From positions 3,275-67,274 of the forward strand of contig CALCZC010000025.1 of NCBI GenBank assembly GCA_937903605.1: a stretch of 64,000 bases of DNA. Reading direction: 5' to 3'. Both the position numbers and the translations under genes were made by a program. Source of the stretch: an uncultured bacterium (GTDB lineage Bacteria > Patescibacteriota > Patescibacteriia > Magasanikbacterales > GWA2-37-8). Positions within the stretch are counted from its first letter, which is position 1; each line of letters opens with the position of its first letter. The notes beneath the pieces are model-generated. The model was not told the DNA's origin. It made no database searches and saw only the letters and a list, made by a program, of their open reading frames with translations. Positions 13,244 to 36,127 of the stretch are shown piece after piece.

Positions 13244-13322
13244 GCTGTAGAAAAAACCCTTTGAGAGGGTTTATATATAGAGGTTACAGGTAGTTTCATA
13301 ACAAACATCTTTGGAGGATGCC

Positions 13323-14174
13323 ATGAAGAACGTACTTTTTTTCTTTGCCGTCGTGTGTGCGATGGTTTTCACCGTTTCCTGCGCCAACTGCACTTACAAT
13401 GAGAAGCTCGGCGCGTGTATCGAAGACATGCCCGAAGAGACCGATGACGCCAAGACCGACATCGACGACGCCAAGACCGACGACGAAAAGTCGGACACCG
13501 ACACTGTCGAAGGTCCCAAACAGGGTGAAGAAGGCGGAAAATGCTTCGCCAACAAGTCCTGTATGGAAGGGCTGGAATGCATTAAGCTCAATGAAGACTA
13601 TATCTGCATCGTAGCAGAAGAAGTCGATGACGACCTCGCAAGCGACGACGAAGAGACCGACGACGAAACCAGCGATGATGACGCAGTCGATCCCGACCTT
13701 GGAAAAGAAGGTCATGGCTGTCTTCCGAACGGAACCTGCAACGAAGGTCTCGTATGTGACCAGGCTTCCGAGAACGAAACCGATGTCTGCGTAAAAGCGG
13801 TCGGCGTAGTCGGAGATAAGGACGGCTCGTGTAAGCCCGATCGGACTTGTAACACAACCTCACTGGTTTGTTACCGTGAAGACTTCGTCTGTCATAATAT
13901 GCCGACCGTCGGCACACGCACCGTTTGCTGGTCGCGTGAACTCAATACCTCACCGGTGCAGGATTCCTGCTCGAAAGAAGGGGGCATCGCTCCCGCGGTA
14001 TTTGAGTATGTCAGCGGGACAAAAACCCCGAACTGCGAAGGACTCGTGAATGTGGACCCGGAGTTCGAATGCGTGCGTATCAACGCAACGGTCGAAACCT
14101 TCCGTAATTCCACACCGGCCGAGCGAGATGACCTCGCCCTCACTTCGTCGTTCTACCTTCCGCCCATAAATTAA
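13323..14174 (+). CDS. Cys-rich/Asp-rich lipoprotein (paralogue A)
   Basis: SD TGGAGG; signal peptide ending TVS-C; three G.EG..C..N..C..GL.C modules separated by acidic linkers. Confidence 0.85.
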   Translation: MKNVLFFFAVVCAMVFTVSCANCTYNEKLGACIEDMPEETDDAKTDIDDAKTDDEKSDTDTVEGPKQGEEGGKCFANKSCMEGLECIKLNEDYICIVAEEVDDDLASDDEETDDETSDDDAVDPDLGKEGHGCLPNGTCNEGLVCDQASENETDVCVKAVGVVGDKDGSCKPDRTCNTTSLVCYREDFVCHNMPTVGTRTVCWSRELNTSPVQDSCSKEGGIAPAVFEYVSGTKTPNCEGLVNVDPEFECVRINATVETFRNSTPAERDDLALTSSFYLPPIN

Positions 14175-14220
14175 CGGCGGACCCCAAGTGCTTTTGGGGT
14201 GACTACAGCAACTTTTACTT

Positions 14221-14250
14221 GACAGCCGATGCACCGGCTGTCTTTTTTTT
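14221..14250 (+). terminator. Intrinsic terminator
   Basis: GACAGCCG-ATGCAC-CGGCTGTC followed by T8. Confidence 0.85.
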
Positions 14251-14282
14251 ATCAATTTTCCCCTCCTTTTGATAAGAGGAGG

Positions 14283-14302
14283 CCTGCCTGCCGGTAGGCA
14301 GG
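14283..14302. repeat. Short GC-rich palindrome (REP-like)
   Basis: CCTGCCTGCCGGTAGGCAGG, intergenic near-perfect palindrome. Confidence 0.55.
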
Positions 14303-14331
14303 ACTAGGGTGGAGTCAAGTGGAAAAAATAG

Positions 14332-14360
14332 TTGACAAATTATAAATTTTATGCTACATT
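14332..14360 (+). promoter_or_regulatory. sigma70 promoter
   Basis: TTGACA-17 nt-TACATT with extended TG. Confidence 0.75.
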
Positions 14361-14439
14361 TAGCTGTTAAAAGATTTTCCTTTTTCGGCGCTTTTAATGG
14401 GTTTTTTGTATTTATTTTGAAAGTGCAAAAAAGAGGGAA

Positions 14440-14455
14440 AGCTCTTTGAAAAATT
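14440..14455 (+). promoter_or_regulatory. boxA-like element
   Basis: AGCTCTTTGAAAAATT in the leader between promoter and SD. Confidence 0.6.
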
Positions 14456-14525
14456 AGCAACTTTAGATAGGGAGAACAGAATGAAAAACGGTTTTAACAA
14501 CAGCAACTGCACGGAGGTGCACGCA

Positions 14526-17500
14526 ATGAAGAACTACTTCGTTTTTTTCATCGCCGTAGCGATGATGCTCATGCTTGCTTGTGAAAGCAGCAAAGACGGT
14601 CGTGATGGTCGTGATGGTCGCGATGGTATCGCGGGCCAGGACGGCCAGGATGGTCAGGACGGGGAAGATGCTCCGGTTTCGCTTTCGCGCTCCGAAAAAG
14701 CGAGTGAAGAAGAAGCGCGTGAGAACTGTGGCGAGGACATCGTCAACGCCAATTGGATCTGTACCGGCGTGGACGAAAATGAAAATGGCTATCTCGACGA
14801 TTATGAATTCGCCGAATGCCATATTGAATGCGCGGGTGCGCCCGGTCACAGTGCATTGGTTGCAAAAACCGATACCACACAAACCGAGTGTCCCAACGGC
14901 GGATTTCATTTTCTTTCCGGTATTGACACCAACGACAATGGCGAGCTTGATGCCGAAGAAGTTTTGGTTGATGAGCTCGTTTGTAACGGCGTTGATGGTC
15001 AGGATGGTATCGGTGATGTAGTTCGTACCAGTACGGAACCCGCCGGCACCAACTGCCAAAACGGTGGTCAGAAAATCGAGCGTGGTCGCGATCTCAACCG
15101 CAACGGTCAGCTGGATGTGTCCGAGATTACCAGTACAAATTATGTATGCAATGGTATTGACGGTACGAACGGGCATGATGCGAGGACTCGCACCAGTATT
15201 ACCAATGATCCGACATTGTGTGCCAGCGGTTCCGGAGTTATTTTTGAATCCGGTACTGACAACAATGACAACGGAGTGCTCGATGATCCGGAGGTTTCCA
15301 CTACGGATGTTATCTGTGATGGTGCCAACGGTAAGACCACACGCATGATCGTGGCCACAGAACCCGCAGGAACAAACTGCGCAGTCGGCGGTTTTTCCGT
15401 CGTTTATGGCGTAGATGAAAATGACAATGGACTTCTCGATACTACCGAGCAGTCGCCCGCACAGTACATCTGTCATGGACAAGACGGTTACAGTGTCGTG
15501 ATGAGAGTCACGGCTGATATTGCTGTTTGTTCATGGAACGGATACAGGTTGCAGTTCGGTCAGGATCTTGATCGTAATGGTATCTTGGATACCGGCGAGG
15601 AAACATCCGACTTTTATATCTGCAACGGATCCGATGGTCTCATTTCCCGCATCAATATTTCCGACGAGCCCAATGGTGAAAACTGTGCGGCCAGCGGAAA
15701 AAGAATAGATACGGGGATGGACATCAATCGCAACGGCCTGCTTGACAGCACCGAGATTACCACGACCAACTATGTCTGCAACGGTGTGCAGGGTCCGCAG
15801 GGAGTTCGGGGATACAATTCGCTTTCGCGGATAACTCCGGATCTTGGCGGAACAGTCTGCACCTGGGGTGGATATTATTTGGAAGTCGGCACAGACATCA
15901 ATGAAGACTGGATCTTGGATCTGGATGAAGTTGGTCACAGTGCTTATGTCTGCAACGGTATAGATGGTAAGACCTGCAGTTCCATACTCAACGATGAACC
16001 CATCGGTACGAACTGTGCTTACGGCGGAAAAATCGTGTATTCCGGTTGTGACGATGATTACAACGGTGTGCTGGACCTCTACGAGGTCGTTCATACCGAC
16101 TACATCTGTAACGGCGCCACCGGTGCGATAGGTCCTGCCGGGTACAATGCCCTGACCAATATGCAAATAGCGGTCAGCGGTTGTCCCAATGGCGGATATG
16201 TTTTCACTGCCGGCACAGACGCCAATGATGATCAGATCCTTGATCTCACGGAAGTGACGGTCACGAATCTTATCTGTCATGGTGTCAATGGCCAGGATGG
16301 TTATACCTATCGTGTGCAGATGGTTGATGAACCCGTGAGTACAAATTGTGTTCAAGGTGGCAAGGCTATCAGTGGAGGTATAGACAGCAACCGTAATGGT
16401 GTGCTCGATCCTTCCGAAGCCGATGATCCGGTTTACATCTGTCATGGTGCAAACGGACTGCCCGGCGCCAATGGTCAAAACGGTCTAAGTATGGCTTTTG
16501 TCATCAGCGTGGCGAGCATTTCCGAATGCCCGGCCGGTGGTGAGAAGCTGGAGCTTGGATTGGATATTGATGCCAGTGGCGTGCTTGAGCTCGTTGAAGT
16601 TACTAGCACGGTTCTCATCTGCAATGGTCAGAACGGTCAGAACGGTAAAAATTCTTTGACCACTATGACCGTGGAGCCCATAGGTACAAACTGCGCCAAA
16701 GGCGGCCATCTCTTGTTGGTCGGTATTGACGACAATGAAAACGGTATTTTGGATTCCAGTGAAGCCGGGGTTCCGCAGTATGTCTGCCATGGTTTGGATG
16801 GCATCAATGGTGCCAACGGGACCAACGGCCACAATGCTTTGGCGATGGTTACCACATCCACTTTGGGATTCTGTCCCAATGGCGGATCCGAACTGCGGAC
16901 CGGAACTGATCTCAATGATGATGGGGTTTTGAATGCGGGCGAAGTTTCTTCGTTTGCGCTTATCTGTAACGGCCAGAACGGCGCCAATGGTGCCGACGGT
17001 TACAGCTCCAGAACTACGATGATCAGTGAGCCCGCAGGTGCCAATTGCCAGGCCGGAGGATTTTTTATTATCTCCGGTACTGATACCAACAACAACGGCG
17101 CGTTGGATGTTACGGAAATTGAATATTCCGGATACATCTGCAACGGCATAAATGGGAATCCCGGCAGTAATGCCGTAACCCGTGGCCGTCTCGCGCTCGT
17201 TTCTGAATGTCTTAATGGCGGAAGCATCGTGGAAACCGGTACGGATAGTAACAACAATGCTGTACTGGACGATGTGGAAGTCATGACGATAAGTTATCTC
17301 TGCAACGGTGATCCGGGAACAAATGGCCAGGATGGCATTTCCTATCGTGTTATCATCACCAATGAATCCGCTGGAATTAATTGTCAGGCCGGTGGAAAAA
17401 AATTGGAAGGTGGTTACGATACTAACAGGAATAATATCCTGGATCCAGGCGAAATCGTAATGACCGAGTATGTCTGCAACGGCATGGACGGTCAGGATGG

Positions 17501-18296
17501 TCAGGATGGTGTGAACGCACTGCTGCGTATGGAAGATGAACCCGCAGGGGTAAATTGCGAACGCGGTGGCAAAGCAATCCTTTCCGGTTACGATCTGGAT
17601 AGTGATAATTACCTGGATGACACCGAAGTGCTTGCACAGAGTTATCTCTGCAACGCCAAGATCGTTTACTCGGTTGGCGCAGAAAGCACCTATGGTACAT
17701 TCACGGCCTATACAGCCAGCACGGTTTCGTATTGCAAAATATATGGTACGACTCTTGAAGCCGTTGCTTACATTAGCGATGTGGGTAATGCGGCGGTAGT
17801 GGCTACGGATTGGGAAGCGGTGGAGTGTTTCAACACTTCCCATGTCCGGGTGAACATCATTTCTTGTTCCGGTAGCGGTTTTGCGCAGAGCAATGTCGGT
17901 GTGTGCACTTATGACGGATCCGTGTATGCGCGTGGCGGTTTGGGGCAGACTTGTAAGCCCAATCGTGCGTGTGATAGCGGTGTCTGCCGACTTCTGGACA
18001 CGACCTGCATTACCAAACCCTCTCCGGGAGCGGGCGAATACGCTTTTTATTGGGACGGCACTATGAACTCCGGCGGAACCACTTGCGAAAGCTATGGTGG
18101 TAACTACTACTCACCGGTGGTGGGTCAGTGGGATATTTCCGGAGTGCCCAACTGTAATGCCGATCTCGGTGATCCGGTTAGGGGACTCAAGTTCTACACC
18201 GGGTGCATCACGGATCAGAGTGATTTTGATACTCTTGATCCTGCCACTCGTCATTGCACCGGTCCGGCTTATGCCACGGTGCTGGCGCCCTGGTAA
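14526..18296 (+). CDS. Large repetitive lipoprotein: 18 Cys-bracketed DxNxNGxLD Ca-binding-type repeats with collagen-like linkers (paralogue B)
   Basis: SD CGGAGGT; lipobox MLA-C; repeats (EPxGxN)CxxGG...GxDxNxNGxLDxxE...xCNG; GxxGxx linkers; C-terminal domain shared with neighbouring genes. Confidence 0.9.
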   Translation: MKNYFVFFIAVAMMLMLACESSKDGRDGRDGRDGIAGQDGQDGQDGEDAPVSLSRSEKASEEEARENCGEDIVNANWICTGVDENENGYLDDYEFAECHIECAGAPGHSALVAKTDTTQTECPNGGFHFLSGIDTNDNGELDAEEVLVDELVCNGVDGQDGIGDVVRTSTEPAGTNCQNGGQKIERGRDLNRNGQLDVSEITSTNYVCNGIDGTNGHDARTRTSITNDPTLCASGSGVIFESGTDNNDNGVLDDPEVSTTDVICDGANGKTTRMIVATEPAGTNCAVGGFSVVYGVDENDNGLLDTTEQSPAQYICHGQDGYSVVMRVTADIAVCSWNGYRLQFGQDLDRNGILDTGEETSDFYICNGSDGLISRINISDEPNGENCAASGKRIDTGMDINRNGLLDSTEITTTNYVCNGVQGPQGVRGYNSLSRITPDLGGTVCTWGGYYLEVGTDINEDWILDLDEVGHSAYVCNGIDGKTCSSILNDEPIGTNCAYGGKIVYSGCDDDYNGVLDLYEVVHTDYICNGATGAIGPAGYNALTNMQIAVSGCPNGGYVFTAGTDANDDQILDLTEVTVTNLICHGVNGQDGYTYRVQMVDEPVSTNCVQGGKAISGGIDSNRNGVLDPSEADDPVYICHGANGLPGANGQNGLSMAFVISVASISECPAGGEKLELGLDIDASGVLELVEVTSTVLICNGQNGQNGKNSLTTMTVEPIGTNCAKGGHLLLVGIDDNENGILDSSEAGVPQYVCHGLDGINGANGTNGHNALAMVTTSTLGFCPNGGSELRTGTDLNDDGVLNAGEVSSFALICNGQNGANGADGYSSRTTMISEPAGANCQAGGFFIISGTDTNNNGALDVTEIEYSGYICNGINGNPGSNAVTRGRLALVSECLNGGSIVETGTDSNNNAVLDDVEVMTISYLCNGDPGTNGQDGISYRVIITNESAGINCQAGGKKLEGGYDTNRNNILDPGEIVMTEYVCNGMDGQDGQDGVNALLRMEDEPAGVNCERGGKAILSGYDLDSDNYLDDTEVLAQSYLCNAKIVYSVGAESTYGTFTAYTASTVSYCKIYGTTLEAVAYISDVGNAAVVATDWEAVECFNTSHVRVNIISCSGSGFAQSNVGVCTYDGSVYARGGLGQTCKPNRACDSGVCRLLDTTCITKPSPGAGEYAFYWDGTMNSGGTTCESYGGNYYSPVVGQWDISGVPNCNADLGDPVRGLKFYTGCITDQSDFDTLDPATRHCTGPAYATVLAPW

Positions 18297-18314
18297 GTTG
18301 CTTTAGTTCATTTC

Positions 18315-18342
18315 AGGCGGTCCTTCTAGGACCGCCTTTTTT
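18315..18342 (+). terminator. Intrinsic terminator
   Basis: AGGCGGTCC-TTCTA-GGACCGCCT followed by a T run. Confidence 0.9.
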
Positions 18343-18353
18343 ATTATAGGTAT

Positions 18354-18409
18354 TTGACATACATTGATGAGTGATATATAATGGTTTGTTAAAAGTTCTT
18401 TGATATTTT
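18354..18409 (+). promoter_or_regulatory. Consensus sigma70 promoter followed by a boxA-like element
   Basis: TTGACA(18354)-17 nt-TATAAT(18377); AGTTCTTTGATATTTT at 18394. Confidence 0.8.
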
Positions 18410-18447
18410 AGACAGATAATAAACCATAATTCATGATGGAGGTTGTC

Positions 18448-19854
18448 ATGAAAAGTGTAGTTTTGACCGCGGTTGCGATCTTTTTTGTTTCCATGTTTTT
18501 CATTTCCGGATGTGCCAACTGTAATTATTCCGAACAGTTGGGAGCGTGTCTTGAAGAGACACCGGATAATGGTGTTGACAAAGAAAATAATGACAATTTT
18601 GTTTCAGACAAAGAAATGACTGATGAAGAAGCCAACAATTTGCCAAAAATCGGTGAAGAAGGCGGAGGGTGTTATCCAAACGATACTTGTGACTCCGGTT
18701 TGAAGTGTATCAAGATCAATGAGAAGATGATGTGTATCAAATTGTCCGAAGAAAAAGATGCAGAGGTTGAAGTTCAGGATTTTGCTGTTGAAAACGAATT
18801 ACCTGATAATGATACTGCATCAAACACTGAGAATGATTCTTACTATCAAGATGACACTGAATCATCTGATTTTGAAAATGAGATACCGGATGTTGATCAT
18901 GTTATCAAATGTGATAAACCGGTTGTAGCCGTAGCCTTCAAAGGACCGCAAGGTTATTGTGGTGGCCAATTTCCTTTTGGCCGTTGGCATGACAATGCGG
19001 TTGTTAAAACCGGACAAGAAGTGACCATAGTAGTTGCCAACCCGTTGGGGACTATTCCGACAGGATACAATCTTGCCAATGAGCTCAAGATAATGGTAAA
19101 AATTTCCCAAGATACGGATTATCTCAACAGTAACTTATCTAATGGATTTTTTATTGGAAACAACGCGCTGACCATGGGTCTTACACCGGGTGGTGGTAAC
19201 AAAACGGAAATGAAATTGATTTTTGCAAAAAAATCATCTTCCATTATGGAGCCACAGAAAGTGATTGTCTCCATAGTTCAAACCACCGGTTATGACGGAT
19301 ATGTTGCCCTTGAGAAAGATAAGTTCGGCGGAGTCTATTGTAGCCCCCATGGAACCTGTCCCGTTTTTAGCGAAGTGATTTTGTGGGTAGTCGACTCTTC
19401 CGATTCCATTCAATGGGGTGAACTGAATCAGAGATGTTTGCCGGATAAAAGATGCTCGCGAAATTATTCCGACCAGTGTGTATCCGGTGACGATCAAGAA
19501 TACTTTTGTACCCAATATGGAAATACTTGTGTTTCCAAACCAAAATTGGAAGTGGATCAGGAATATCGCTATTGGGATGCTACCATAGATTGGTATACAG
19601 GTTCGAACTCCGTTTATAACGGTAAAACCACCTGTGAAAGCAAAAGTTCGAGCAATCGTTTTTGTTATCCACCCGATCCATGGACTTGGAATAACGATAG
19701 TGTTTTACCTGCCTGCCAATGCAGTGACAACTCCTTGTTTAAGCCGGCTGGTGCAATGGGATGCGTTGTTGATAAAGGAAGTCGGTGGGTAGATTGTAAA
19801 AGCGATATTTTTTGGAAATACAATTTTTACTCACCCTCCTATATCTGTCAGTAG
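18448..19854 (+). CDS. Cys-rich/Asp-rich lipoprotein (paralogue C)
   Basis: SD TGGAGGT; lipobox ISG-C; N-terminal CANCNYSEQLGAC shared with paralogue A; GEEGGGCYPNDTCDSGLKC module. Confidence 0.85.
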   Translation: MKSVVLTAVAIFFVSMFFISGCANCNYSEQLGACLEETPDNGVDKENNDNFVSDKEMTDEEANNLPKIGEEGGGCYPNDTCDSGLKCIKINEKMMCIKLSEEKDAEVEVQDFAVENELPDNDTASNTENDSYYQDDTESSDFENEIPDVDHVIKCDKPVVAVAFKGPQGYCGGQFPFGRWHDNAVVKTGQEVTIVVANPLGTIPTGYNLANELKIMVKISQDTDYLNSNLSNGFFIGNNALTMGLTPGGGNKTEMKLIFAKKSSSIMEPQKVIVSIVQTTGYDGYVALEKDKFGGVYCSPHGTCPVFSEVILWVVDSSDSIQWGELNQRCLPDKRCSRNYSDQCVSGDDQEYFCTQYGNTCVSKPKLEVDQEYRYWDATIDWYTGSNSVYNGKTTCESKSSSNRFCYPPDPWTWNNDSVLPACQCSDNSLFKPAGAMGCVVDKGSRWVDCKSDIFWKYNFYSPSYICQ

Positions 19855-19874
19855 TTGATAATATAGTTCTTTTT

Positions 19875-19902
19875 AGGTGGCTCTTCTAGAGCCACCTTTT
19901 TT
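19875..19902 (+). terminator. Intrinsic terminator
   Basis: AGGTGGCTC-TTCTA-GAGCCACCT followed by a T run. Confidence 0.9.
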
Positions 19903-19966
19903 ATTTAGTAAAAAATGGCTTAAATAAGCAAAATTTATTTTGGCTAAGATTAGCTAAGTTTACCCC

Positions 19967-19995
19967 TTGACAAAATCGTCAAAATGTGCTATAAT
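19967..19995 (+). promoter_or_regulatory. Perfect consensus sigma70 promoter
   Basis: TTGACA-17 nt-TATAAT with extended TG; paralogous to the promoter at 11881. Confidence 0.85.
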
Positions 19996-20201
19996 ATCAC
20001 GTTACAATCAAAAAGCGTTGGAGAGAGCGCGGAAGTAATAAAAGGCCAAATTCCGTATCTCTCTTTATCAAAAGAGAGTTTTGTTTTTCTAGCCCATTAT
20101 CCCATCAACTAGATTGATTGGATAAAGGAGAGAAAAAATAAAAATCAGGTTCCTTACAATATAGAGTTAGAGTCCAAAAAACCAATAAGTGGAGGAAAAC
20201 C

Positions 20202-21362
20202 ATGAAAAAGCTCATCACCACGGTTGTGGTCGCCTTCTTTTTCGTCGCCTGTGGCGGCAGCAATGTCAACAATGTCAATGACGAATTCGTCGGCAACGAC
20301 GAAAGCATCAATGATGAAATCACCGACAACGAGACTCCCGATGAGATCGTCAGCGATGACGAGATTAACTGGGATGAAGTCGGCCATGAAGGGGAGCCAT
20401 GCTTCCCGAACAATACTTGTCACGAAGGGCTTAAATGCCGTGACGGCAAGTGTGTGGACGACGGTGGCATGTCCGATACCGGTAAACTCAATCATGAGTG
20501 TTACCCGGACGGTTCATGCAGATCAGACGACATGATCTGTGAGGAAGGAATTTGCGTCGAGCGTAAAGCCGATGCGGATGAAACTCTCACGGATAATGAA
20601 GTCGCGGATGATGTTGTGACTGATGACGAAACTTCGGATGAAATCATTTCCGATGAGGAAGTGGTGGATGAAGAAGTGATGACTGACAACGACATCGTTG
20701 ACAATCCCGTGGTCGACAATGACACGGCCGAAGATCCTCTGACCGGGATTGAAGCGGGACATCCCTGCTACCCCAACAACACCTGCGATAGTATCAAAGG
20801 TCTTGTATGTCAGAACGGTCTCTGTCAGTATCCTGGCACCACGCCGGATGTTGATACTGCGACTCCGGACGAGGACGAAGTCCTTGTCGATGATGAGACA
20901 GTCACTGATTCCGACGTTGCTTCTGATGAAGAAGTGACAGACGATGATGTGCTTCTCACAGAAGAAGAACCGGTGGTTGATAATGATACCACTGAAGTTC
21001 CGGATCAGGACAATCTGCCGTCCGACATCGGAAACAAGGGGCAGAGTTGTTACCCCAACCACACCTGTAATGGTGTGCTGGTCTGTATCGTTGGCACTGA
21101 AATATGTGCTGATGAACCGATTGCTGTCCTCGGACAGTATGAGGGCAGATGTTGGGACTACAAGGATCCTCTTACAGGAAAAACCACCTGTGAAAAAGAG
21201 GGCTGGTACTGGTCTCCTGCTATCTGGGCCGAGACTTCGGACCAATTCCCGCTTTGTATCGGTAGCAGCACCAGACGTCCGTATCTTGCGGAATGTCAGT
21301 TGCAAACCAACAGCGGAGAGCCTCGTAGTTCGGTGTGGTATAAATATCCGACCACGCCGTAA
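20202..21362 (+). CDS. Cys-rich/Asp-rich lipoprotein (paralogue D)
   Basis: SD TGGAGG; lipobox FVA-C; four G..G..C(Y/F)P(N/D)..C...L.C modules separated by D/E/T/V-rich linkers. Confidence 0.85.
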   Translation: MKKLITTVVVAFFFVACGGSNVNNVNDEFVGNDESINDEITDNETPDEIVSDDEINWDEVGHEGEPCFPNNTCHEGLKCRDGKCVDDGGMSDTGKLNHECYPDGSCRSDDMICEEGICVERKADADETLTDNEVADDVVTDDETSDEIISDEEVVDEEVMTDNDIVDNPVVDNDTAEDPLTGIEAGHPCYPNNTCDSIKGLVCQNGLCQYPGTTPDVDTATPDEDEVLVDDETVTDSDVASDEEVTDDDVLLTEEEPVVDNDTTEVPDQDNLPSDIGNKGQSCYPNHTCNGVLVCIVGTEICADEPIAVLGQYEGRCWDYKDPLTGKTTCEKEGWYWSPAIWAETSDQFPLCIGSSTRRPYLAECQLQTNSGEPRSSVWYKYPTTP

Positions 21363-27777: not shown

Positions 27778-28692
27778 TTATTTTCCTGTAAAAATACAAA
27801 CAACCGCTCCGGAAAAAACAATTTCGTTTTTCAATTCTTGCATCAATCCGGCCAGAGAAAGCAAAGAGTTATAAGAAGGTTTTTCGTTAGGAAAATAAGA
27901 ATGATAAATTTTTTCTGCTTCCAAAAGTTCGCTGTTTTTGATAATTAAAACTTTTCCTTGATTGTTTTTTATTAATTCGTTTATTTGCGGTTTTCTTCGG
28001 GCGATTTTGTCAACTATGGCTTTGGCCAAAGACGGGTCAGAAGGTAATGAATTTTCAGCAAACGGGTGACAGGAGGTTGTTTGAATCGGATATATTTTTG
28101 GTTTAAGATTTTTTTTGTTAAATCCAAGATAAAGACCTTGGGCGGCAGTACCCGAACTGGTAGGTATAAAAATAGCTTCCAAATTCGGAATTTGCGAAAG
28201 CTCTTCACTGAGTTCCTCATAACCCAAAAGAGAGGTATCATCCGTGCTTTGTCTCAGGTTCTTACCTTTGCCGTTTTTTTCAAATAAAAAAGCACTTTGA
28301 CGAGGATTGAGAGTTTGCCGAATTTTAATCTCCGGACTTATCCCTTTAAATAAGTTTTTAATTTTTTGCAACAATGGTAGATGAGTTACTTGCAATAAAC
28401 GAGCAAGTTTTTCTTTATCTATTTTGTAACCGATATATATTTTTAAATACAATTTATTTTGGGGATTTTTTTCATTATATTCTTTGATAAACAAAGCAGC
28501 GCTCAATGCGGCATTTCCTGAAGAAGAAATAACAAAATTTTTCCAACCGTTTTTTGCATAAAATTCAATCATTTTAGGTATAGATCTACCCTTGTGCGAG
28601 CCATAAGGGTGCAGATCTTCACGTTTGAAATATAAAGCCGGTAAACCCAGTTGTTTGGCCAAATTTTCAGCATTTATTAATGGAGTTTTCAT
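27778..28692 (-). CDS. PLP-dependent fold-type II enzyme (threonine synthase/cysteine synthase superfamily)
   Basis: KTPL, LYFKREDLHPYGSHKGR (PLP lysine), SSSGNAALS, IPTSSGT, VCIFTG. Confidence 0.85.
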   Translation of the reverse strand: MKTPLINAENLAKQLGLPALYFKREDLHPYGSHKGRSIPKMIEFYAKNGWKNFVISSSGNAALSAALFIKEYNEKNPQNKLYLKIYIGYKIDKEKLARLLQVTHLPLLQKIKNLFKGISPEIKIRQTLNPRQSAFLFEKNGKGKNLRQSTDDTSLLGYEELSEELSQIPNLEAIFIPTSSGTAAQGLYLGFNKKNLKPKIYPIQTTSCHPFAENSLPSDPSLAKAIVDKIARRKPQINELIKNNQGKVLIIKNSELLEAEKIYHSYFPNEKPSYNSLLSLAGLMQELKNEIVFSGAVVCIFTGK

Positions 28693-28737: not shown

Positions 28738-28766
28738 TTGCATTTTTTCTTAAAATCAGTTATAAT
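28738..28766 (+). promoter_or_regulatory. sigma70 promoter for the LysW-like gene
   Basis: TTGCAT-17 nt-TATAAT. Confidence 0.65.
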
Positions 28767-28804: not shown

Positions 28805-28969
28805 ATGTTATTAATTTGTCCAGAATGTAAAAATGAAGTTGATCTTTCCACTTATCCGAATTTGGATGTTGAACATATTGTAGAATGTGATGTTTGCGGT
28901 ATTACTTTGCAAGTAAAATCTATTGCTGAAGGAAAAATTGAAGCTGAAGTGGTGGATGAAGGAAAATAA
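28805..28969 (+). CDS. LysW-like zinc-ribbon small protein (54 aa; not in ORF track)
   Basis: Manual translation MLLICPECKNEVDLSTYPNLDVEHIVECDVCGITLQVKSIAEGKIEAEVVDEGK; CPEC...IVECxxCG..L.V pattern and size match LysW. Confidence 0.8.
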   Translation: MLLICPECKNEVDLSTYPNLDVEHIVECDVCGITLQVKSIAEGKIEAEVVDEGK

Positions 28970-29041
28970 AAGTCCGTAAAGTCTCTAAAGTCTGTAAAGT
29001 CCATAAAGTCAAAATTGACGACTTTAAGGACTTGATGGGCA

Positions 29042-30415
29042 TTATGAACTTTCGACTAATCGGTCAATCATTCCTCTAAATCCGTGACTACCCAAGAAAA
29101 CTATTGCGTCTCCCGTGATAGTTTTTTGTTTTAAATAGCTTATTAATTCCTCGTCGTTTTCCAAATAAACAGTATTTTGGTGAGTTTGCGCAATAACAGA
29201 AGTAAGTTGCGACCCGTCCATAACTTTATCTTCTTCTCCTTCTTTTATTTTTATTTTTGTCAAACGCGGGATAATAACCTCGTCGGCATCTTTAAACGCA
29301 TCTTTGTATAAAGGTATTGCTTCTGTTTGCCTATTGCCGGAATTTGGCTCAAATACGGCATATATATTACCCGGATATACTTGTTTGAGGGTTAAAAGAA
29401 TAGATTTGGCTTTAGTCGGAGAATGGGCAATATCATCGTACACAGTAGCGCCACGTGGAGTTGTTCCGCGTTTTTCCAATCGTCTTTTTATTCCCGTAAA
29501 TTTTGATAAAGCGGAAATTATTTTTTCTATCGGTACACCAAGCTCACATGCCATGGCAAAAGCGGCGCAAATATTTTCTGCCATATAAATACCGAGCATC
29601 GGCGAGTTTATTGGATAAGTAGTTTTATTATGATTTATTTCAAAATGTAACCCGCTTTGATCTTGAACAATATTTCCATAAACATAATCACAGGTATTAT
29701 CTATGCCATATGATTTATAAAAAGGAATTTTAAGGGGTTTATTTTTTATTTTTTCTGAAATTAAAATAAGTCCGCTTTGAGGAATGCTACCGATTAATTT
29801 ATTAAAAGCTTCAAAATAACTTTGTTCAGTCGGATAAACGTCCAGATGATCCCAGATCGCATCAGTCAAAAGCAGATGGGTCGGAGCATAAGAAAAGAAC
29901 TTGGCTCTGTCATCCCAACGCGCGGTTTTGTATTCATCTCCTTCTACCACACTTATAATACTGCCTTCCGGTTCATCGGCGCTTACCCCAAGAGAATCGG
30001 ATAATCCGCCAAACATGTAAGTCGGTTTGAAACCCGCGTCTTTTAGGATGAAAGATAGTAATGCGGTGGTGCTAGTTTTACCGTAAGTGCCGGCACATAC
30101 AACAGAAGTTTTTTTGATAAGGTTTTTTGCAATAAGTTCCGGATAAGAAACAAAAGGAATTTTTTCATTTTGTACTTTTTGCCATTCCGGATTTTCACTT
30201 CCTGCCACGTTACCAACTACCACTAAATCAGGCGTTCCCATTTTTTCAGGATGCCAACCGGGATAAAAATTTATTTTGTGATCTTCTAAGTGTGTAGAAA
30301 CAGGCGGATAAAACCCAACATCGCTCCCGGTGACTTTCCAACCTTTTTGTTTCCAGAGTATGGCGAGTGAACTCATCCCGACTCCGCAAATACCGATAAA
30401 GTGGATGTGTTGCAT
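29042..30415 (-). CDS. Mur ligase, Mpl/MurC-like
   Basis: HIHFIGICGVGMSSLA, GSD..FYPPVS (Mpl-like), GTYGKTST, EGDEY, GIKRRLE, DDIAHSP. Confidence 0.85.
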   Translation of the reverse strand: MQHIHFIGICGVGMSSLAILWKQKGWKVTGSDVGFYPPVSTHLEDHKINFYPGWHPEKMGTPDLVVVGNVAGSENPEWQKVQNEKIPFVSYPELIAKNLIKKTSVVCAGTYGKTSTTALLSFILKDAGFKPTYMFGGLSDSLGVSADEPEGSIISVVEGDEYKTARWDDRAKFFSYAPTHLLLTDAIWDHLDVYPTEQSYFEAFNKLIGSIPQSGLILISEKIKNKPLKIPFYKSYGIDNTCDYVYGNIVQDQSGLHFEINHNKTTYPINSPMLGIYMAENICAAFAMACELGVPIEKIISALSKFTGIKRRLEKRGTTPRGATVYDDIAHSPTKAKSILLTLKQVYPGNIYAVFEPNSGNRQTEAIPLYKDAFKDADEVIIPRLTKIKIKEGEEDKVMDGSQLTSVIAQTHQNTVYLENDEELISYLKQKTITGDAIVFLGSHGFRGMIDRLVESS

Positions 30416-30418
30416 ATA

Positions 30419-31162
30419 TTATATCTTGATTTTTTTATCATTTTTGGCCAAGAAAGTTTTTGGAAAAAACTTTCTTGCTGTTTTTAGAGCCAAACCAAAC
30501 TTATCTTTTGTTGCGTATTGACCCGCATCAAAATGGGTTAAAAAAAGTTTTTTAACTTTTGACGATATTGCAACTTTACTTGCTTGCTCGGGAGAAGTAT
30601 GTCCCCACCTAAAATCTTTATCATTTGGTAATAAACCACATTCATGAATAAGAATGTCTGCATTTTGTGCCAATTTTATCTCATTTAAACATGGGGCTGT
30701 ATCGCAACAATAAACAACAACCTTATTGTTATCTTTTATTTTTATACCCAGAGTTGGAACAATATGTTTTAGCGCAGTCACTTCAAAATTAAATGGCAAA
30801 ATATAATTTCCGGGTTTTACCACCTTATATTTGATTGGAAATTTATAATTTTTTAACGGGACGGTGAATGGTTTAGAAATTATTTTTGTAATATTATCTT
30901 TGCTTACCTTACTGCAAATAATAGTTAATCCCCGTTTCAATCTCAAACCAGACAAACCATGAAGGCCACAAATATGGTCTATATGTGTATGTGAAATAAA
31001 AAGATAAACAGGTTTGTTTTTTATGATATAGTTTTTAACTTTATATAATCCGAAACCGGCGTCTAAAATAATATATTCTTTGGACGTTTCAACGAGTGTG
31101 CAAATAGTGCTGCCGTTTTTATTATCAAACCAACCATTGGTTCCTAAAAATGTTATTTCCAT
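30419..31162 (-). CDS. Metallo-beta-lactamase-fold hydrolase, RNase Z/BN-like
   Basis: MEITFLGT, SHTHIDH, DT.PC, ADILIHE, GHTS, LTHF. Confidence 0.85.
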   Translation of the reverse strand: MEITFLGTNGWFDNKNGSTICTLVETSKEYIILDAGFGLYKVKNYIIKNKPVYLFISHTHIDHICGLHGLSGLRLKRGLTIICSKVSKDNITKIISKPFTVPLKNYKFPIKYKVVKPGNYILPFNFEVTALKHIVPTLGIKIKDNNKVVVYCCDTAPCLNEIKLAQNADILIHECGLLPNDKDFRWGHTSPEQASKVAISSKVKKLFLTHFDAGQYATKDKFGLALKTARKFFPKTFLAKNDKKIKI

Positions 31163-31163
31163 A

Positions 31164-31820
31164 TTATTTTTTTTGTAAAATTTCTTTTAATTTTTCAATA
31201 TTATTTTGCCAAATTTTTCCATCAAACCATTCAAATCCCGCAAATTGTGTTTTATAAATTGCTTTTTCATTTTGAGCGCTTCCTAAATAAATATATTTTA
31301 AACCTTGTTCTTTCGCCCACATAATTGCTTTGGTCATCATGCCAATACCTAGATTATTTAGATTATTTTCCAAATTATAAAAAGGATAGGCATAATGCAA
31401 AATATCCGTATTTTGATAGCAGATGCAATAACCGACTGGATCATTATTATATTTATATTCCAATAATAAATTAAAATTATTATCATCACTTGTCAGGAGC
31501 TCTTTGATTTTGTTGGCGGAAAAAGTTTTTTCACCGAATTTTTTGGTGTAAAAATCAACTCCGAGTTTGTGAATATGCCAATCATAATCGGGGTGGGGAA
31601 GTACCACAGTATTTAATTTTACATCTTCGGTTTTGCGTAAAACCCTTTTATTTTCACTACTCAATTCGAATTTATCTAGATTTACACGTACACTCCTGGT
31701 TTGTGTCATTATGCCTTTTCCCAGACGTGTAAAAACAAAACCTTGTTCATACATGGTGTTTATATTATTTTCGGAAAAATCAGAAATAGTTTTTTCTTCC
31801 CAAGACAAGTAGCCGTCCAT
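31164..31820 (-). CDS. GNAT-fold protein resembling aminoacyl-tRNA-protein transferase (ATE/Bpt)
   Basis: SVRVNLDKFELSSENKRVLRK and YPFY...LGIGMM..AI.WAKEQGLKYIYLG...YK match the ATE_N/ATE_C pattern. Confidence 0.7.
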   Translation of the reverse strand: MDGYLSWEEKTISDFSENNINTMYEQGFVFTRLGKGIMTQTRSVRVNLDKFELSSENKRVLRKTEDVKLNTVVLPHPDYDWHIHKLGVDFYTKKFGEKTFSANKIKELLTSDDNNFNLLLEYKYNNDPVGYCICYQNTDILHYAYPFYNLENNLNNLGIGMMTKAIMWAKEQGLKYIYLGSAQNEKAIYKTQFAGFEWFDGKIWQNNIEKLKEILQKK

Positions 31821-31899: not shown

Positions 31900-33033
31900 T
31901 TAGTTCATCGACAGCCAAATGGCGATAAGTACAAAAAAGAAATGGATAAGCCAAAAACGCATTACAATTCTTTCTTCACTCCAACCTTTAAATTCAAAAT
32001 GGTGGTGTAGGGGAGACATTTTGAAAAGTCGACGACCCAAAAAACGGCGAAAGAAAACTTGTAAAATTACAGAGATTGCTTCAATATAAAAAATAAATCC
32101 TAAAACTGGTAAAAGAATAGTTTTGTTGATAGCCATGACGTTTATTGCCAAAAGCGCACCAAGACCCAAGGTACCGACATCACCCATTTGGAATCTCGCC
32201 GGTTTTACATTGAAATAAGTATAAGCTATCAAAGCGCCCATAACCGTGGCGTTAAGCAAAGTGAAAGCTGCTCTACCCTCTATCCAGGAGATGGCGGTCA
32301 AACCGGCAAAAGTTATCAAAAGCGAACCTCCGGCTAAACCGTCCAAACCATCAGCTATATTTACGGCATTCGCGGTAAACATAACCAAAAATATTACCAA
32401 AGGAATTATCCACCAAGATAGAGACACAAAGCCGTCAAAAGGGATCCAGAGAGTATGCCACTGTGGTCCTAATTTAAAATAAATCCACCAAGCAGTGATA
32501 GCGCCAGCTAAAAATTGTAGCAAAAGTTTTTCGTGAACCAGTACGCCTTTTCCTGGGTGAGATCCTAAAACAGAGGTACTGCGTTGAAAGATAGTCCAAG
32601 GTAAAGTTAAAATATACCACAAACGCACGTACCATTTTTTATGGACGCGAATAAGGGTTAAAGTCATCGGTAAGGTACGGTTACGTCTTTTTTTACCAAA
32701 AATATTTAATAGGTCGTCGGCCGCGCCCAAAAAAGCGGAAATTCCCATTACCCCGATAGGAACATAAGTATAACTTCGCTCCCAATTAAAAAGTAAAGTA
32801 ATAGCGGTTACTACGATTATTACGAGTAAACCACCCATTATCGGTGTGCCGACTTTGAATAATCTTTCACCGCCTTTCAAAGTAAAATCATATTCAGCGC
32901 TACGAGTTATTTTAAATTTCAAAAGTAGACGCACCAAAATCGGCGCCAAAATAAAAGCACCCATTGCCGCTAAGATTGCATAAAGCAAAGCTTGTTGTAG
33001 GAGATTGGGAGAAAAAGGAAGAAAAGACATCAT
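31900..33033 (-). CDS. mraY: Phospho-N-acetylmuramoyl-pentapeptide transferase MraY family
   Basis: GTPIMGG, GAADD, NAVNIADGLDGLA, FNVKPARFQMGDVG, FKMSPLHHHFE. Confidence 0.9.
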   Translation of the reverse strand: MMSFLPFSPNLLQQALLYAILAAMGAFILAPILVRLLLKFKITRSAEYDFTLKGGERLFKVGTPIMGGLLVIIVVTAITLLFNWERSYTYVPIGVMGISAFLGAADDLLNIFGKKRRNRTLPMTLTLIRVHKKWYVRLWYILTLPWTIFQRSTSVLGSHPGKGVLVHEKLLLQFLAGAITAWWIYFKLGPQWHTLWIPFDGFVSLSWWIIPLVIFLVMFTANAVNIADGLDGLAGGSLLITFAGLTAISWIEGRAAFTLLNATVMGALIAYTYFNVKPARFQMGDVGTLGLGALLAINVMAINKTILLPVLGFIFYIEAISVILQVFFRRFLGRRLFKMSPLHHHFEFKGWSEERIVMRFWLIHFFFVLIAIWLSMN

Positions 33034-33080: not shown

Positions 33081-33887
33081 CTAGAATTTAATACGACGGA
33101 CTTCAAAAACTTTGGCGTTTTTGGCCTCAAGATATGTCTCATTATTTTCATTAATTGTACCAAATTCCACCCATTCTTGATTTAGTAACGGTTTATCAGG
33201 TTTGGTGATACGAATTTCTCCGCGGGCTACACCATGATCATATTGACCCTCCATACTCCAAGCACGAGCATGTACATACTTTATGGTTTGACCATTATTA
33301 TCAGTTATCAATATTATGTGGTTACGGTTTTTTTGCGGACCGGTTTCTATCATAATCATCAGATCGCCCGGGGCAATATCTTTTATCGCTTCTATTTTTT
33401 TTGTGTTTTTATCGGAAGCGTAATGTTTGACCGACATATTTTCTATTGGTCGCAACCAACTTATAAAATAGCGAACGGAATTTTTTATCGGGACAAAGAA
33501 AAATTTGTTGACAATATCTATTTTTCTAGTTTCTTTGAAATGTTCACGTAATACATGAGAAACAAAACCCGAGCAATCTATACCCAAACCATTATCAACT
33601 AAAAATTTTTTTATACATTTGGCTGGAGGGTTGATACTATCATAATCTGGCAAGTTGGTGATCAAGCACTTTCCTTCGCAGTCAAAAATACCATGATGAT
33701 ATTGAATAGAAATTATTTTGGCTTCCTCTACTATTTCTTGTGGTAACCCCTTACCGATAAGCGCGCGCAATTGTGCTCGCTGTTTGGAGCGAGAATTTAT
33801 AAAATAAGGACAACGTACTCCCGGCACTTCTAAAAACGGCAGGTTCAAATATTCTTCAATAAGTTGTTCAGCTTTGGGAGAAAGCAT
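33081..33887 (-). CDS. NlpC/P60-like (papain-fold) protein
   Basis: GIDCSGFV catalytic-Cys motif, PGDL, downstream HI and HA. Confidence 0.65.
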   Translation of the reverse strand: MLSPKAEQLIEEYLNLPFLEVPGVRCPYFINSRSKQRAQLRALIGKGLPQEIVEEAKIISIQYHHGIFDCEGKCLITNLPDYDSINPPAKCIKKFLVDNGLGIDCSGFVSHVLREHFKETRKIDIVNKFFFVPIKNSVRYFISWLRPIENMSVKHYASDKNTKKIEAIKDIAPGDLMIMIETGPQKNRNHIILITDNNGQTIKYVHARAWSMEGQYDHGVARGEIRITKPDKPLLNQEWVEFGTINENNETYLEAKNAKVFEVRRIKF

Positions 33888-33900
33888 ATTTTGACAATTT

Positions 33901-35133
33901 TCAATTTTTATTTTTTAAAAAAGTTAATATTGTTTTTCCTAAACTATTTAGTTGCTTCGGGTTTTTCATTATACCGTTTAAGCTTTGGATACGGAGTAAA
34001 TCAGCTCCTAGTTTTGTGTTTTTATATTTTATAAAATTAAAATATTTGTTTTTTTTCGGAGTTTTTATTTCAGCTGTTTTTTTAGTAACACGTTGAATAA
34101 TTTGCGCTCCTCTATCTATCTTTATCAATTGATATTTGTTTTTTATTTCTAATAAAGACCCAAGATGTGCTTCAAAAGTAGTAAGGCCTTCATTTAAACC
34201 ATTTTTTTGTTGTAATTGTGATTCAAAAGTTGTACTGGCCGGTTGTCGGGCGTTGATTTCTATCAGATATAATTTTCCAGTTTTTATCTCAAGTACTGTA
34301 TCAATACCATACAATCCTTTCCAACCAGCTTTGGCCATGCGGATTCCAACTTCACCGGCGATTTTTATATACTGATTGAATTGTTCTTCAGTTAAACCAA
34401 CATGAGGTGCTGCCCAATCATTACCTATGGTGGCAAAGGGATTGTCGGTAAAAGGTTTTAAACCGGTAATTTGAAAATTAATGTTTCCAAGCATTATTTT
34501 ATCGTTCCAAACACAATTGTTGTTAGTAAAAAAAGGCCCTTCTATATAGTCGCTAATTCTGATTTCACGATTAGGAAATATTTTTTTGATTTTATTCAAT
34601 TGTTTGACGGAAGTGATAAGAAAAGTGCCGCTTCCGGTATGAGCACGATTGTATTGTAAAATAAACTTTTTACCAGACCATTTTAAATTTTTTCCTAAAA
34701 CTATTTTTGTATTGGGTAAATATTTTTTTAGCGGCCCTAAAAAGTTTACCTGACTAATTTTTTCTTCAATTTGTGAAGCCAGAGAAGCTTTTGGGTTCAA
34801 GAGTTTCCACTTATTGTCGGAACAAATTTTTTCTATAACTTCGGTATTTTTAAAAACCACGATAAAATCTTTTTTGGTAATGATTTTTTTTACTTTCTGG
34901 TGGTTGAGCAATTCGTGAGTGTCAAGAGCTACTTTATTTTTTATTATTTTTATATTCGAATATTTTTTACTAATTTTAGCGGCGAGAGGGGATTGATTGG
35001 TAATAATAAAAAAATTCGGGATATTGGAATCCAAACCACCTATAGCTCTTTCTAAATCACGACAAACATAAAAAATACGGCCGGATTTTATCGCTTTTTT
35101 TACGGCTTTTTTATACTCAGTTGCAGAGTCCAT
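33901..35133 (-). CDS. ATP-grasp domain ligase
   Basis: IEEKI, HTGSGTF, YIEG, GLYGID, LYLIEINAR. Confidence 0.85.
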   Translation of the reverse strand: MDSATEYKKAVKKAIKSGRIFYVCRDLERAIGGLDSNIPNFFIITNQSPLAAKISKKYSNIKIIKNKVALDTHELLNHQKVKKIITKKDFIVVFKNTEVIEKICSDNKWKLLNPKASLASQIEEKISQVNFLGPLKKYLPNTKIVLGKNLKWSGKKFILQYNRAHTGSGTFLITSVKQLNKIKKIFPNREIRISDYIEGPFFTNNNCVWNDKIMLGNINFQITGLKPFTDNPFATIGNDWAAPHVGLTEEQFNQYIKIAGEVGIRMAKAGWKGLYGIDTVLEIKTGKLYLIEINARQPASTTFESQLQQKNGLNEGLTTFEAHLGSLLEIKNKYQLIKIDRGAQIIQRVTKKTAEIKTPKKNKYFNFIKYKNTKLGADLLRIQSLNGIMKNPKQLNSLGKTILTFLKNKN

Positions 35134-35185
35134 AGTTTTCTTTTATAATGAATATATTACGCTAAATTTGAAAAAAATTCAAGTT

Positions 35186-36127
35186 ATGAACGAATTATAT
35201 AAAAAATTGAAATATTTTGGCTCAGTTAAGGCAAATATGCCTTTATCTCGGTTTTCTACCTTCAAAATAGGCGGACCAGCCGAATTTTTGGTTGAAATTA
35301 AAGAAAATTCCAAGCTAATACAGTTATTAGACTTTTTAAATGAACAAGGTCTAGATTTTTTTGTTTTAGGCAGTGGCTCAAATGTTTTATTTCCGGACGA
35401 AGGTTTACATAAAATAGTTATAAAAATTAATACTTCAAACACCCAAGTAACGAAAAATATTATAGAAATTGATTCCGGGGTTTTGCTTTCTACCCTAGTT
35501 AATTTAGCGGTAAAAAATGGATTAAGTGGTTTAGAGTGGGCAGCAGGGATTCCTGGAACCGTAGGAGGAGCAATAAGGGGAAATGCCGGAGCAATGGGGG
35601 AAAGTATGGGACAATGTATACAAGAGGTGTCGGTTTGGCAAGATGGTCAGGTATCATTGTTTGGTAAAGAAGATTGTCGGTTTGCTTATCGAGAGAGTTT
35701 TTTCAAAAATAACCCGCAAACAGTCATTTTGAAAGCCAAAATAAAACTACCAAAAGGAGAAAAAGCAGAAATTTTAGAAAAAATTTCTCGAAATTTGTCA
35801 AATCGAAAGAAAAATTCTACTTTACCATCAGCGGGTAGTTTTTTTAAAAATATCCGTTTGGAAGATTGGCCGGGAAAAAAGGATAGTTTACCTGAATTAT
35901 TTAAATCTCGCGGGACTATTCCGGCTGGTTGGTTGATAGAAAATTGCGGTTTGAAGGGTTTTAAGATAGGTGATGCTGGAGTTTCGCAAGAACACGGAAA
36001 TTTTTTGGTAAATTTTGGATCAGCTACCGCCGATCAGGTTTTACAAGTGGTTGAAGAAATTCAAAAAAAGGTATATAATGAATATGGAGTGGGCTTGGAA
36101 CCCGAGGTCCAAATCGAGGTTTCCTGA
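35186..36127 (+). CDS. murB: UDP-N-acetylenolpyruvoylglucosamine reductase
   Basis: TFKIGGPA, LGSGSNVL, GIPGTVGGAIRGNAGA, PSAGSFFKN, HGNFLVN, LEPEV. Confidence 0.95.
   Translation: MNELYKKLKYFGSVKANMPLSRFSTFKIGGPAEFLVEIKENSKLIQLLDFLNEQGLDFFVLGSGSNVLFPDEGLHKIVIKINTSNTQVTKNIIEIDSGVLLSTLVNLAVKNGLSGLEWAAGIPGTVGGAIRGNAGAMGESMGQCIQEVSVWQDGQVSLFGKEDCRFAYRESFFKNNPQTVILKAKIKLPKGEKAEILEKISRNLSNRKKNSTLPSAGSFFKNIRLEDWPGKKDSLPELFKSRGTIPAGWLIENCGLKGFKIGDAGVSQEHGNFLVNFGSATADQVLQVVEEIQKKVYNEYGVGLEPEVQIEVS

Follow-up and report, generated by a model that had tools for sequence, protein, structure and literature searches.

What might a protein of the LysW fold carry when its last residue is lysine? An excerpt of the account in PMC10433800 describes LysW as ending in EDWGE, with a terminal glutamate, and sets out the chemistry of LysX. 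The stretch of DNA analysed here, 64,000 nucleotides long and called the window throughout, holds among peptidoglycan genes a small open reading frame (ORF) with two CxxC pairs, 12 aspartates and glutamates to 4 lysines and arginines, and the C-terminus EVVDEGK (Table 1). An earlier note, made from the sequence alone, had read it as a LysW-like acidic zinc ribbon of 54 residues and had proposed that its terminal lysine might reverse the chemistry of the known carriers. We asked what this protein is, which genes accompany it, and what they might make together.

A LysW-fold protein with a conserved terminal lysine

The reading as a LysW-like protein is borne out by the ORF itself, by a match of 28.9 bits to Pfam Zn_ribbon_LysW (PF21344; cut-off 27), and by a codon-position signal among 63 equal-length orthologues, whose differences number 915, 553 and 1642 at the three codon positions, the third dominating; judged from its sequence, the ORF is real and coding. 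Against the full-length TIGR01206 lysW model it stays below the cut-off (25 bits, cut-off 53.2). Four cysteines (C5, C8, C28 and C31) are invariant, the best PDB matches to the family profile are the LysW structures 5K2M and 3WWL, and the gene is single-copy in the source genome (G000; 1.13 Mb, 99.8% complete). Named relatives come mostly from Patescibacteria, Magasanikbacteria included. In many cases the public MAG record bears the title 'uncultured Gammaproteobacteria' (L003, L004, L006 and others); these have Magasanikbacteria-type synteny and are probably mislabelled. A search for longer or fused forms of the carrier gave one case only, likely an artefact. Three LysW-like tandem two-domain proteins (P0135, P0173 and P0190) are likewise Lys-terminated.

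The earlier note had allowed that the terminal lysine might not be conserved. Of 92 close homologues 91 retain it, 85 with the ending DEGK, in a set that may be biased toward words shared among matches; at 80 genome loci, located by N-terminal and CxxC patterns only, 79 carriers end in DEGK and the remaining one was missed by the pattern used. A wider profile search returned 70 short zinc-ribbon matches with a comparable tail, 63 of them Lys-ending. Because alignment A2 was built from chosen Lys-ending rows, the invariance of the lysine there is not evidence. The best independent case, at the level of sequence, is G217, whose carrier occupies the same gene slot, has lost all four cysteines and still ends in LLVEK. 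Tails vary across the family (DEGK, EEEK, LVEK, YVQK, NLGK) while the final lysine is constant. The phylum also contains canonical LysW ending in EDWG[EQ], which in G047 adjoins a true LysX. Between mutS and murD, G212 (L147:8505-8759) and G146 (L098) encode LysW-like proteins with acidic or aromatic tails (KDDFF, LEDEV), without the PLP and ATP-grasp genes described below and in genomes without the racemase family; these are perhaps another carrier variant.

The earlier note had also given the gene a promoter of its own, and what stands of this is a -10-like box at a conserved position. Of 80 upstream regions, 47 contain a TA[TC]A[AC]T box, against a mean of 24.6 and a maximum of 40 after shuffling, and most of these boxes lie 30-49 nt ahead of the carrier ATG; since they are both enriched and positioned, a -10 element is likely. 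A sigma-70 consensus scan called no plus-strand site at its threshold, and the promoter as a whole is putative. One RNA run with a small share yielded only short contigs and was uninformative on expression. Between the convergent carrier and Mpl-like genes, window positions 28977-29030 hold four units of the 9-nt TAAAGTCNN, after which come GACTTTA copies in inverted orientation. There are three such TAAAGTCNN/GACTTTA arrays in the genome and similar text in L004 and L126; the array in the window is possibly a small dispersed repeat or a terminator.

Table 1. Features of the carrier locus, in window coordinates
Feature	Position	Strand	Remarks
Fold-type II PLP enzyme (core module), proposed epimerase	27778..28692	-	K34 Schiff-base Lys; SSSGN; RQSTDD loop
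Promoter-like site: TTGCAT, 17 nt, TATAAT	28738..28766	+	Divergent gap common to carrier and PLP gene
LysW-fold zinc-ribbon carrier, 54 aa	28805..28969	+	ATG to TAA; terminal Lys54 (codon 28964-28966)
Mpl/MurC-like ligase	29042..30415	-	The genome's only MurC-like ligase; below both cut-offs; Mpl-type EPN[ST]GN and GSHG motifs
RNase Z-like MBL hydrolase	30419..31162	-	Local insertion, outside the system
Ate1/Bpt-like aminoacyl-tRNA transferase (ATE_C), proposed adder of residue 1 to tethered Glu	31164..31820	-	
MraY	31900..33033	-	182.5 bits; TIGR00445 cut-off 192
Divergent NlpC/P60 cysteine peptidase, proposed release enzyme	33081..33887	-	C105, H190, H206
ATP-grasp ligase (core module), proposed loader of Glu on Lys54	33901..35133	-	Not LysX/RimK
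MurB	35168..36127	+	Divergent from the cluster

A three-gene module among cell-wall genes

The core module consists of the carrier, a fold-II PLP enzyme and an ATP-grasp ligase. The earlier note had suggested a look at the neighbours of LysW homologues. The PLP gene lies beside the carrier, head to head, in 80 of 80 close loci; on the carrier's other side these loci hold the Mpl-like ligase (77), the ATE-like gene (66), MraY (62), NlpC (48) and the ATP-grasp (46), counts that are limited by 8-kb flanks and contig ends. Among 251 sampled Patescibacteria genomes, 42 match the carrier profile (29 of them with a Lys-ending protein and 5 with a different tail, the other 8 weakly and in part), 28 hold the PLP gene at 180 bits or more, with 3 further contig-end fragments and a next best score of 148, and 27 hold the ATP-grasp at 300 bits or more; all three sets of scores are partly circular, since many profile rows were drawn from these same genomes. 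The module is present in 31 of the 251, in 12 families and mostly among dcw genes, with a Lys-ending carrier in 30; in the other, G047, the contig ends at the carrier slot. In distant classes the three genes lie between mraY, murD, ftsW, murG and ftsA/Z. The PLP gene found no match on plasmids. The Atlas supplied generic names only. Neither the module nor a system built on such a carrier is described in the literature searched, a scope outside which subscription journals and supplements fell, and this conserved module is apparently undescribed there.

The MBL hydrolase encoded within the cluster, which the earlier note had put forward as a releasing enzyme, is rejected in that role, there being no homologue of it in the 80 related loci. 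In G073 a single open frame of 680 aa or more (L179:7117-9156) spans the PLP enzyme and the ATP-grasp, a possible fusion; within the ATP-grasp match one stop was flagged by the genome search. Elsewhere in the window, positions 14481-18296 encode a 1271-aa secreted lipoprotein-like protein that contains numerous Cys- and Gly-rich repeats along with acidic motifs resembling calcium-binding ones, standing among other Cys-rich lipoprotein ORFs (13311-21362).

The PLP enzyme and the ATP-grasp ligase

The PLP enzyme has its fold and Schiff-base lysine, and by alignment an SSGN motif and a Ser-Asp loop, in common with fold-II serine/aspartate racemases (5YBW) and threonine synthases; it differs from each in sequence, at about 20% identity, and in that its substrate is predicted to be protein-bound. 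Residue S58, which we take to correspond to Ser84 of hSR, the re-face serine, is invariant in all 27 alignment rows. The SSGN is that of the Asp racemase 5YBW, threonine synthases having STGN, although a serine at this site is also present in cysteine synthases, and the RQSTDD loop aligns to the triple-serine loop SSSDD of 5YBW. SSGNA thus stands in place of the synthase STGNT, and the arginine of the synthase motif NSVNPYR, presumably the phosphate-binding Arg160, aligns to alanine. For serine racemase, Ser84 and the triple-serine loop are described in an excerpt of PMC6424897. In sequence comparison threonine synthase (121 bits) outscores Asp racemase (85) as a match to the enzyme, which falls below all cut-offs. 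A fold search with its predicted structure (pLDDT 92.9) gave Z-scores of 30.6 to 28.8 at about 20% identity, a range within which synthases, dehydratases and racemases were not separated.

The ATP-grasp ligase of the cluster compares poorly with true LysX (hhalign probability 10.8) and weakly matches BesA, the L-propargylglycine-L-glutamate ligase 8YI6 (22 bits), an enzyme of gamma-glutamyl chemistry. Related ATP-grasps of a second clade (130-290 bits, about 490 aa; L141-L146, L151, L152) lie in another context, with no carrier seen; they adjoin an ATPgrasp_ST ligase and are accompanied by glycosyltransferases and by genes for MATCAP or N-formylglutamate amidohydrolase.

Module genomes and the missing glutamate racemase

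The racemase family PF01177 matches 1 of the 31 module genomes and 100 of the 220 others (101 of 251 in total; without the unpublished G153, 99 of 219). The lone match belongs to the aspartate-racemase subfamily, scoring 43.9 on the MurI model against a cut-off of 146.65, and no glutamate racemase (MurI) was found in the 31. We give no p-value, since related genomes cannot count as independent and the module may have arisen few times. A natural control is G141, which comes from a family with four module genomes, lacks the module, and has a true MurI and an ordinary, intact MurD at the same dcw locus. The racemase family is also absent from 13 of 34 MurD-bearing non-module genomes, in a hand-picked set of 42, so other routes exist. 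We are confident, well short of certainty, that the module is tied to stem position 2 of peptidoglycan.

In the source genome the Mur ligases number three only, namely the Mpl-like enzyme of the cluster, MurE and MurF, and searches of its sequence found no MurD, Ddl, Alr, racemase or RimK (PF08443). The combination of MurF with no Ddl or Alr found recurs in G190 and G088. Other roles for the module, and another source of D-Glu, were considered. As a replacement for Ddl the module is rejected, the two not being complementary: 11 of the 31 module genomes have Ddl over its cut-off, though G000 is without it. As a diamino-acid or lysine donor for position 3 it is disfavoured, MurE being kept in 29 of 31 with ordinary scores. 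A D-amino acid aminotransferase is a poor candidate for the source of D-Glu, with class IV PF01063 in only 3 of 31.

Two types of module genome

Module genomes fall into type A (15 genomes) and type B (14, the source genome included), with G025 and G047 fitting neither; G025 has the module and lacks MurD, the ATE-like gene and the type B NlpC. Type A genomes mostly have a canonical MurC (13 of 15) together with a divergent MurD. In E. coli MurD, according to an excerpt of PMC9780078, D-Glu is held at its alpha-carboxylate by Thr321 and Lys348 and at its gamma-carboxylate by Ser415 and Phe422. In an alignment that covered 14 of the 15 type A genomes, and from which three further controls dropped out at ORF picking, the alpha-carboxylate site is intact (Lys348 in 14 of 14, Thr or Ser at 321 in 14 of 14), while Ser415 of the gamma-carboxylate site is found in 0 of 14 type A enzymes and in 18 of 18 controls, the sister clade included; the canonical motif that follows Ser415 is likewise absent from type A MurD. 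The 14 sequences form one clade in a quick tree (SH-aLRT 91) and so count as about one event.

Type B genomes lack MurD and any MurC over the cut-off in 14 of 14. All 14 have the NlpC, which is in 0 of 60 other genomes searched, and 13 have the ATE-like gene; in G088 and G151 the Mpl-like ligase is fused to NlpC. Searches of PDB sequences with the ATE-like and NlpC proteins gave nothing informative. The enzyme called a GNAT in the earlier note is better identified as an Ate1/Bpt-like aminoacyl-tRNA transferase, and action on Lys54 itself, as once proposed, seems less likely than action on the cargo. Excerpted accounts describe Ate1/Bpt enzymes as acylating, from tRNA, an alpha-amine next to an acidic group (PMC9351520), YkfC-type NlpC/P60 enzymes as cutting gamma-D-Glu-diamino acid bonds (PMC2954226), and L-Ala-D-Glu as accepted by Mpl weakly and at a low rate (PMC3060825).

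Co-occurrence supports the suggestion that NlpC is the release enzyme, both in type B and in five type A loci, where MurD adjoins an NlpC/P60 gene unlike that of type B, one of these genes giving a dipeptidyl-peptidase SH3 match. In family f26 (6 genomes) there is no clear NlpC, only matches of 20-25 bits in 4, which leaves release there unexplained by the pathway proposed below. The MurE of this family (L182-L190) has the motif THEDSW, other Patescibacteria having TNEDPY, and might take over the release step. G056, a complete genome (100%), has an Mpl-like and ATE-like pair in its dcw cluster (L173:9109-11465), and no carrier, PLP enzyme, ATP-grasp, NlpC, MurD or MurI was found in it; the Mpl-like/ATE-like arm can thus exist without the carrier.

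A proposed route to D-glutamate and its alternatives

The PLP enzyme needs a free alpha-amine, so the cargo must hang by a carboxyl, and the terminal lysine offers the amine. The reversed chemistry of the earlier note, with the carboxyl of the substrate joined to the Lys epsilon-amine, is accordingly the version that we favour on the strength of sequence, the lysine being conserved even in a Cys-less carrier and the PLP gene linked at 80 of 80 loci. In the pathway that we propose, the ATP-grasp would first attach L-Glu, through the gamma-carboxyl, to the Lys54 epsilon-amine; the PLP enzyme would then epimerise the free alpha-carbon of the tethered Glu to D. In type B, a small residue carried by tRNA, L-Ala or another, would next be placed on the free alpha-amine by the Ate1/Bpt-like enzyme. 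Cleavage of the gamma-D-Glu/Lys bond by NlpC/P60 would free the dipeptide, which the Mpl-like ligase would attach to UDP-MurNAc, with MurI, MurC and MurD all replaced. In type A, coupling of UDP-MurNAc-L-Ala to the tethered D-Glu would fall to the remodelled MurD, and release to NlpC. In both, MurE and MurF would then proceed as usual. A gamma-tethered Glu would present to the type A MurD a free alpha-amine and alpha-carboxylate, its blocked gamma end matching the lost site; it would resemble the acidic N-terminus acylated by Ate1/Bpt; and the L-Ala-gamma-D-Glu-Lys link would resemble the bond targeted by YkfC-type NlpC/P60 enzymes, but through the epsilon-amine.

Gene content, synteny and motifs are what we observe; from these we infer every reaction and the identity of every amino acid, the latter guessed from the pathway slot. 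That the protein acts as a carboxyl-side carrier, with the stem peptide's D-Glu being made on it, seems to us evenly balanced between right and wrong. The fuller claim is that Patescibacteria possess a LysW-derived carrier of inverted polarity and a threonine-synthase-derived, carrier-dependent Glu epimerase, that in type B a transferase of the N-degron type builds L-Ala-D-Glu, and that MurI, MurC and MurD are replaced together; we advance it tentatively, as falling a little short of an even chance.

The same slot could be served by other chemistry, position 2 being not D-Glu but D-Asp, aminoadipate or the product of a PLP beta- or gamma-replacement with the Lys54 amine. PLP replacement chemistry with Glu is known from SbnA, the PLP enzyme is nearest to threonine synthases, and the loss of the MurD gamma site is as compatible with another side chain as with a tethered one. 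Such chemistry nevertheless appears unlikely, given that the presumed phosphate arginine of the synthases is an alanine here, that MurE is ordinary by score, and that a secondary-amine link would not be cleavable by an NlpC peptidase, which yet co-occurs. Quite improbable in our judgement is a salvage pathway, in which NlpC and Mpl would recycle host L-Ala-D-Glu while the carrier trapped or stored the salvaged D-Glu or had a separate job: it would leave unexplained the PLP enzyme, the tRNA-dependent transferase and a MurD remodelling in type A that is limited to module genomes. It would account for the loss of MurI, MurC and MurD with enzymes, Mpl and the YkfC type, that are known from recycling, and it gains from the Mpl-like and ATE-like genes of G056, which stand without the module, and from the absence of MurI in many non-module genomes.

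The order of steps is not deducible from sequence, and the PLP enzyme might instead racemise free Glu, with the carrier shuttling D-Glu; or the attachment might be at the alpha-carboxyl of Lys54, with LysX/RimK polarity, in keeping with LysX-type ligases, which activate the carboxyl of the carrier (excerpt of PMC10433800). To these versions we give little credence: tails vary widely while the lysine stays, the ATP-grasp is not LysX-like by hhalign, and the carrier's closest neighbour is the PLP gene. A degenerate LysW relic, or a zinc-binding accessory without covalent cargo, is very improbable; some homologues are indeed labelled LysW in databases, but the lysine is retained where the cysteines are lost (G217), co-occurrence with two enzymes is strict, and LysX, LysY and LysJ were not found in the module genomes searched for them.

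Significance and comparison with known systems

If the favoured pathway of epimerisation on the carrier is correct, it would constitute a further peptidoglycan route to D-Glu, a near-universal wall building block, and we know of no earlier D-Glu route that uses a protein carrier. It would mean that the chemistry of a known carrier family has been inverted and that an Ate1/Bpt-type transferase has gained a biosynthetic role, and it would explain how about one in eight of the sampled Patescibacteria (31 of 251) build walls with 'missing' mur genes. Even should the chemistry differ, the tie between the carrier module and stem position 2, which we regard as highly probable, appears undescribed in the literature searched.

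The nearest architectural relatives are LysW/ArgW with LysX/ArgX of Thermus, Sulfolobus, Thermococcus and haloarchaea, which likewise pair a small acidic CxxC-CxxC zinc ribbon and its C-terminal tail with an ATP-grasp partner, and which have, as here, a glycine before the last residue. The present carrier differs in ending in Lys and not Glu, without EDWGE, in having a ligase that is not of the RimK/LysX kind, in standing among peptidoglycan genes, and in its predicted opposite polarity; LysY/ArgC (PF01118) and LysJ/ArgD (PF00202) were found in 0 of 5 module genomes searched. Despite its AmCP-like architecture the carrier is, on these sequence features, not a member of LysW/AmCP, since terminal residue, ligase and downstream enzymes all fail to agree.

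An excerpt of PMC8788868 names MurI, D-amino acid aminotransferase and MurD2/MurL as routes to D-Glu. The nearest functional parallel is MurD2/MurL (Xanthomonas, Micromonospora), which according to the same excerpt likewise bypasses MurI, epimerises a Glu that is already bound and involves an altered MurD, but, unlike this module, uses no carrier; no unassigned conserved gene adjoins a Mur ligase in the loci seen here. Recycling by Mpl and YkfC/DPP VI likewise combines a peptide ligase acting onto UDP-MurNAc with a gamma-D-Glu-specific NlpC/P60 peptidase, but the present system differs in having no MurC-like ligase besides the Mpl-like enzyme, in lacking MurD, and in being accompanied by an Ate1-like transferase and the carrier module.
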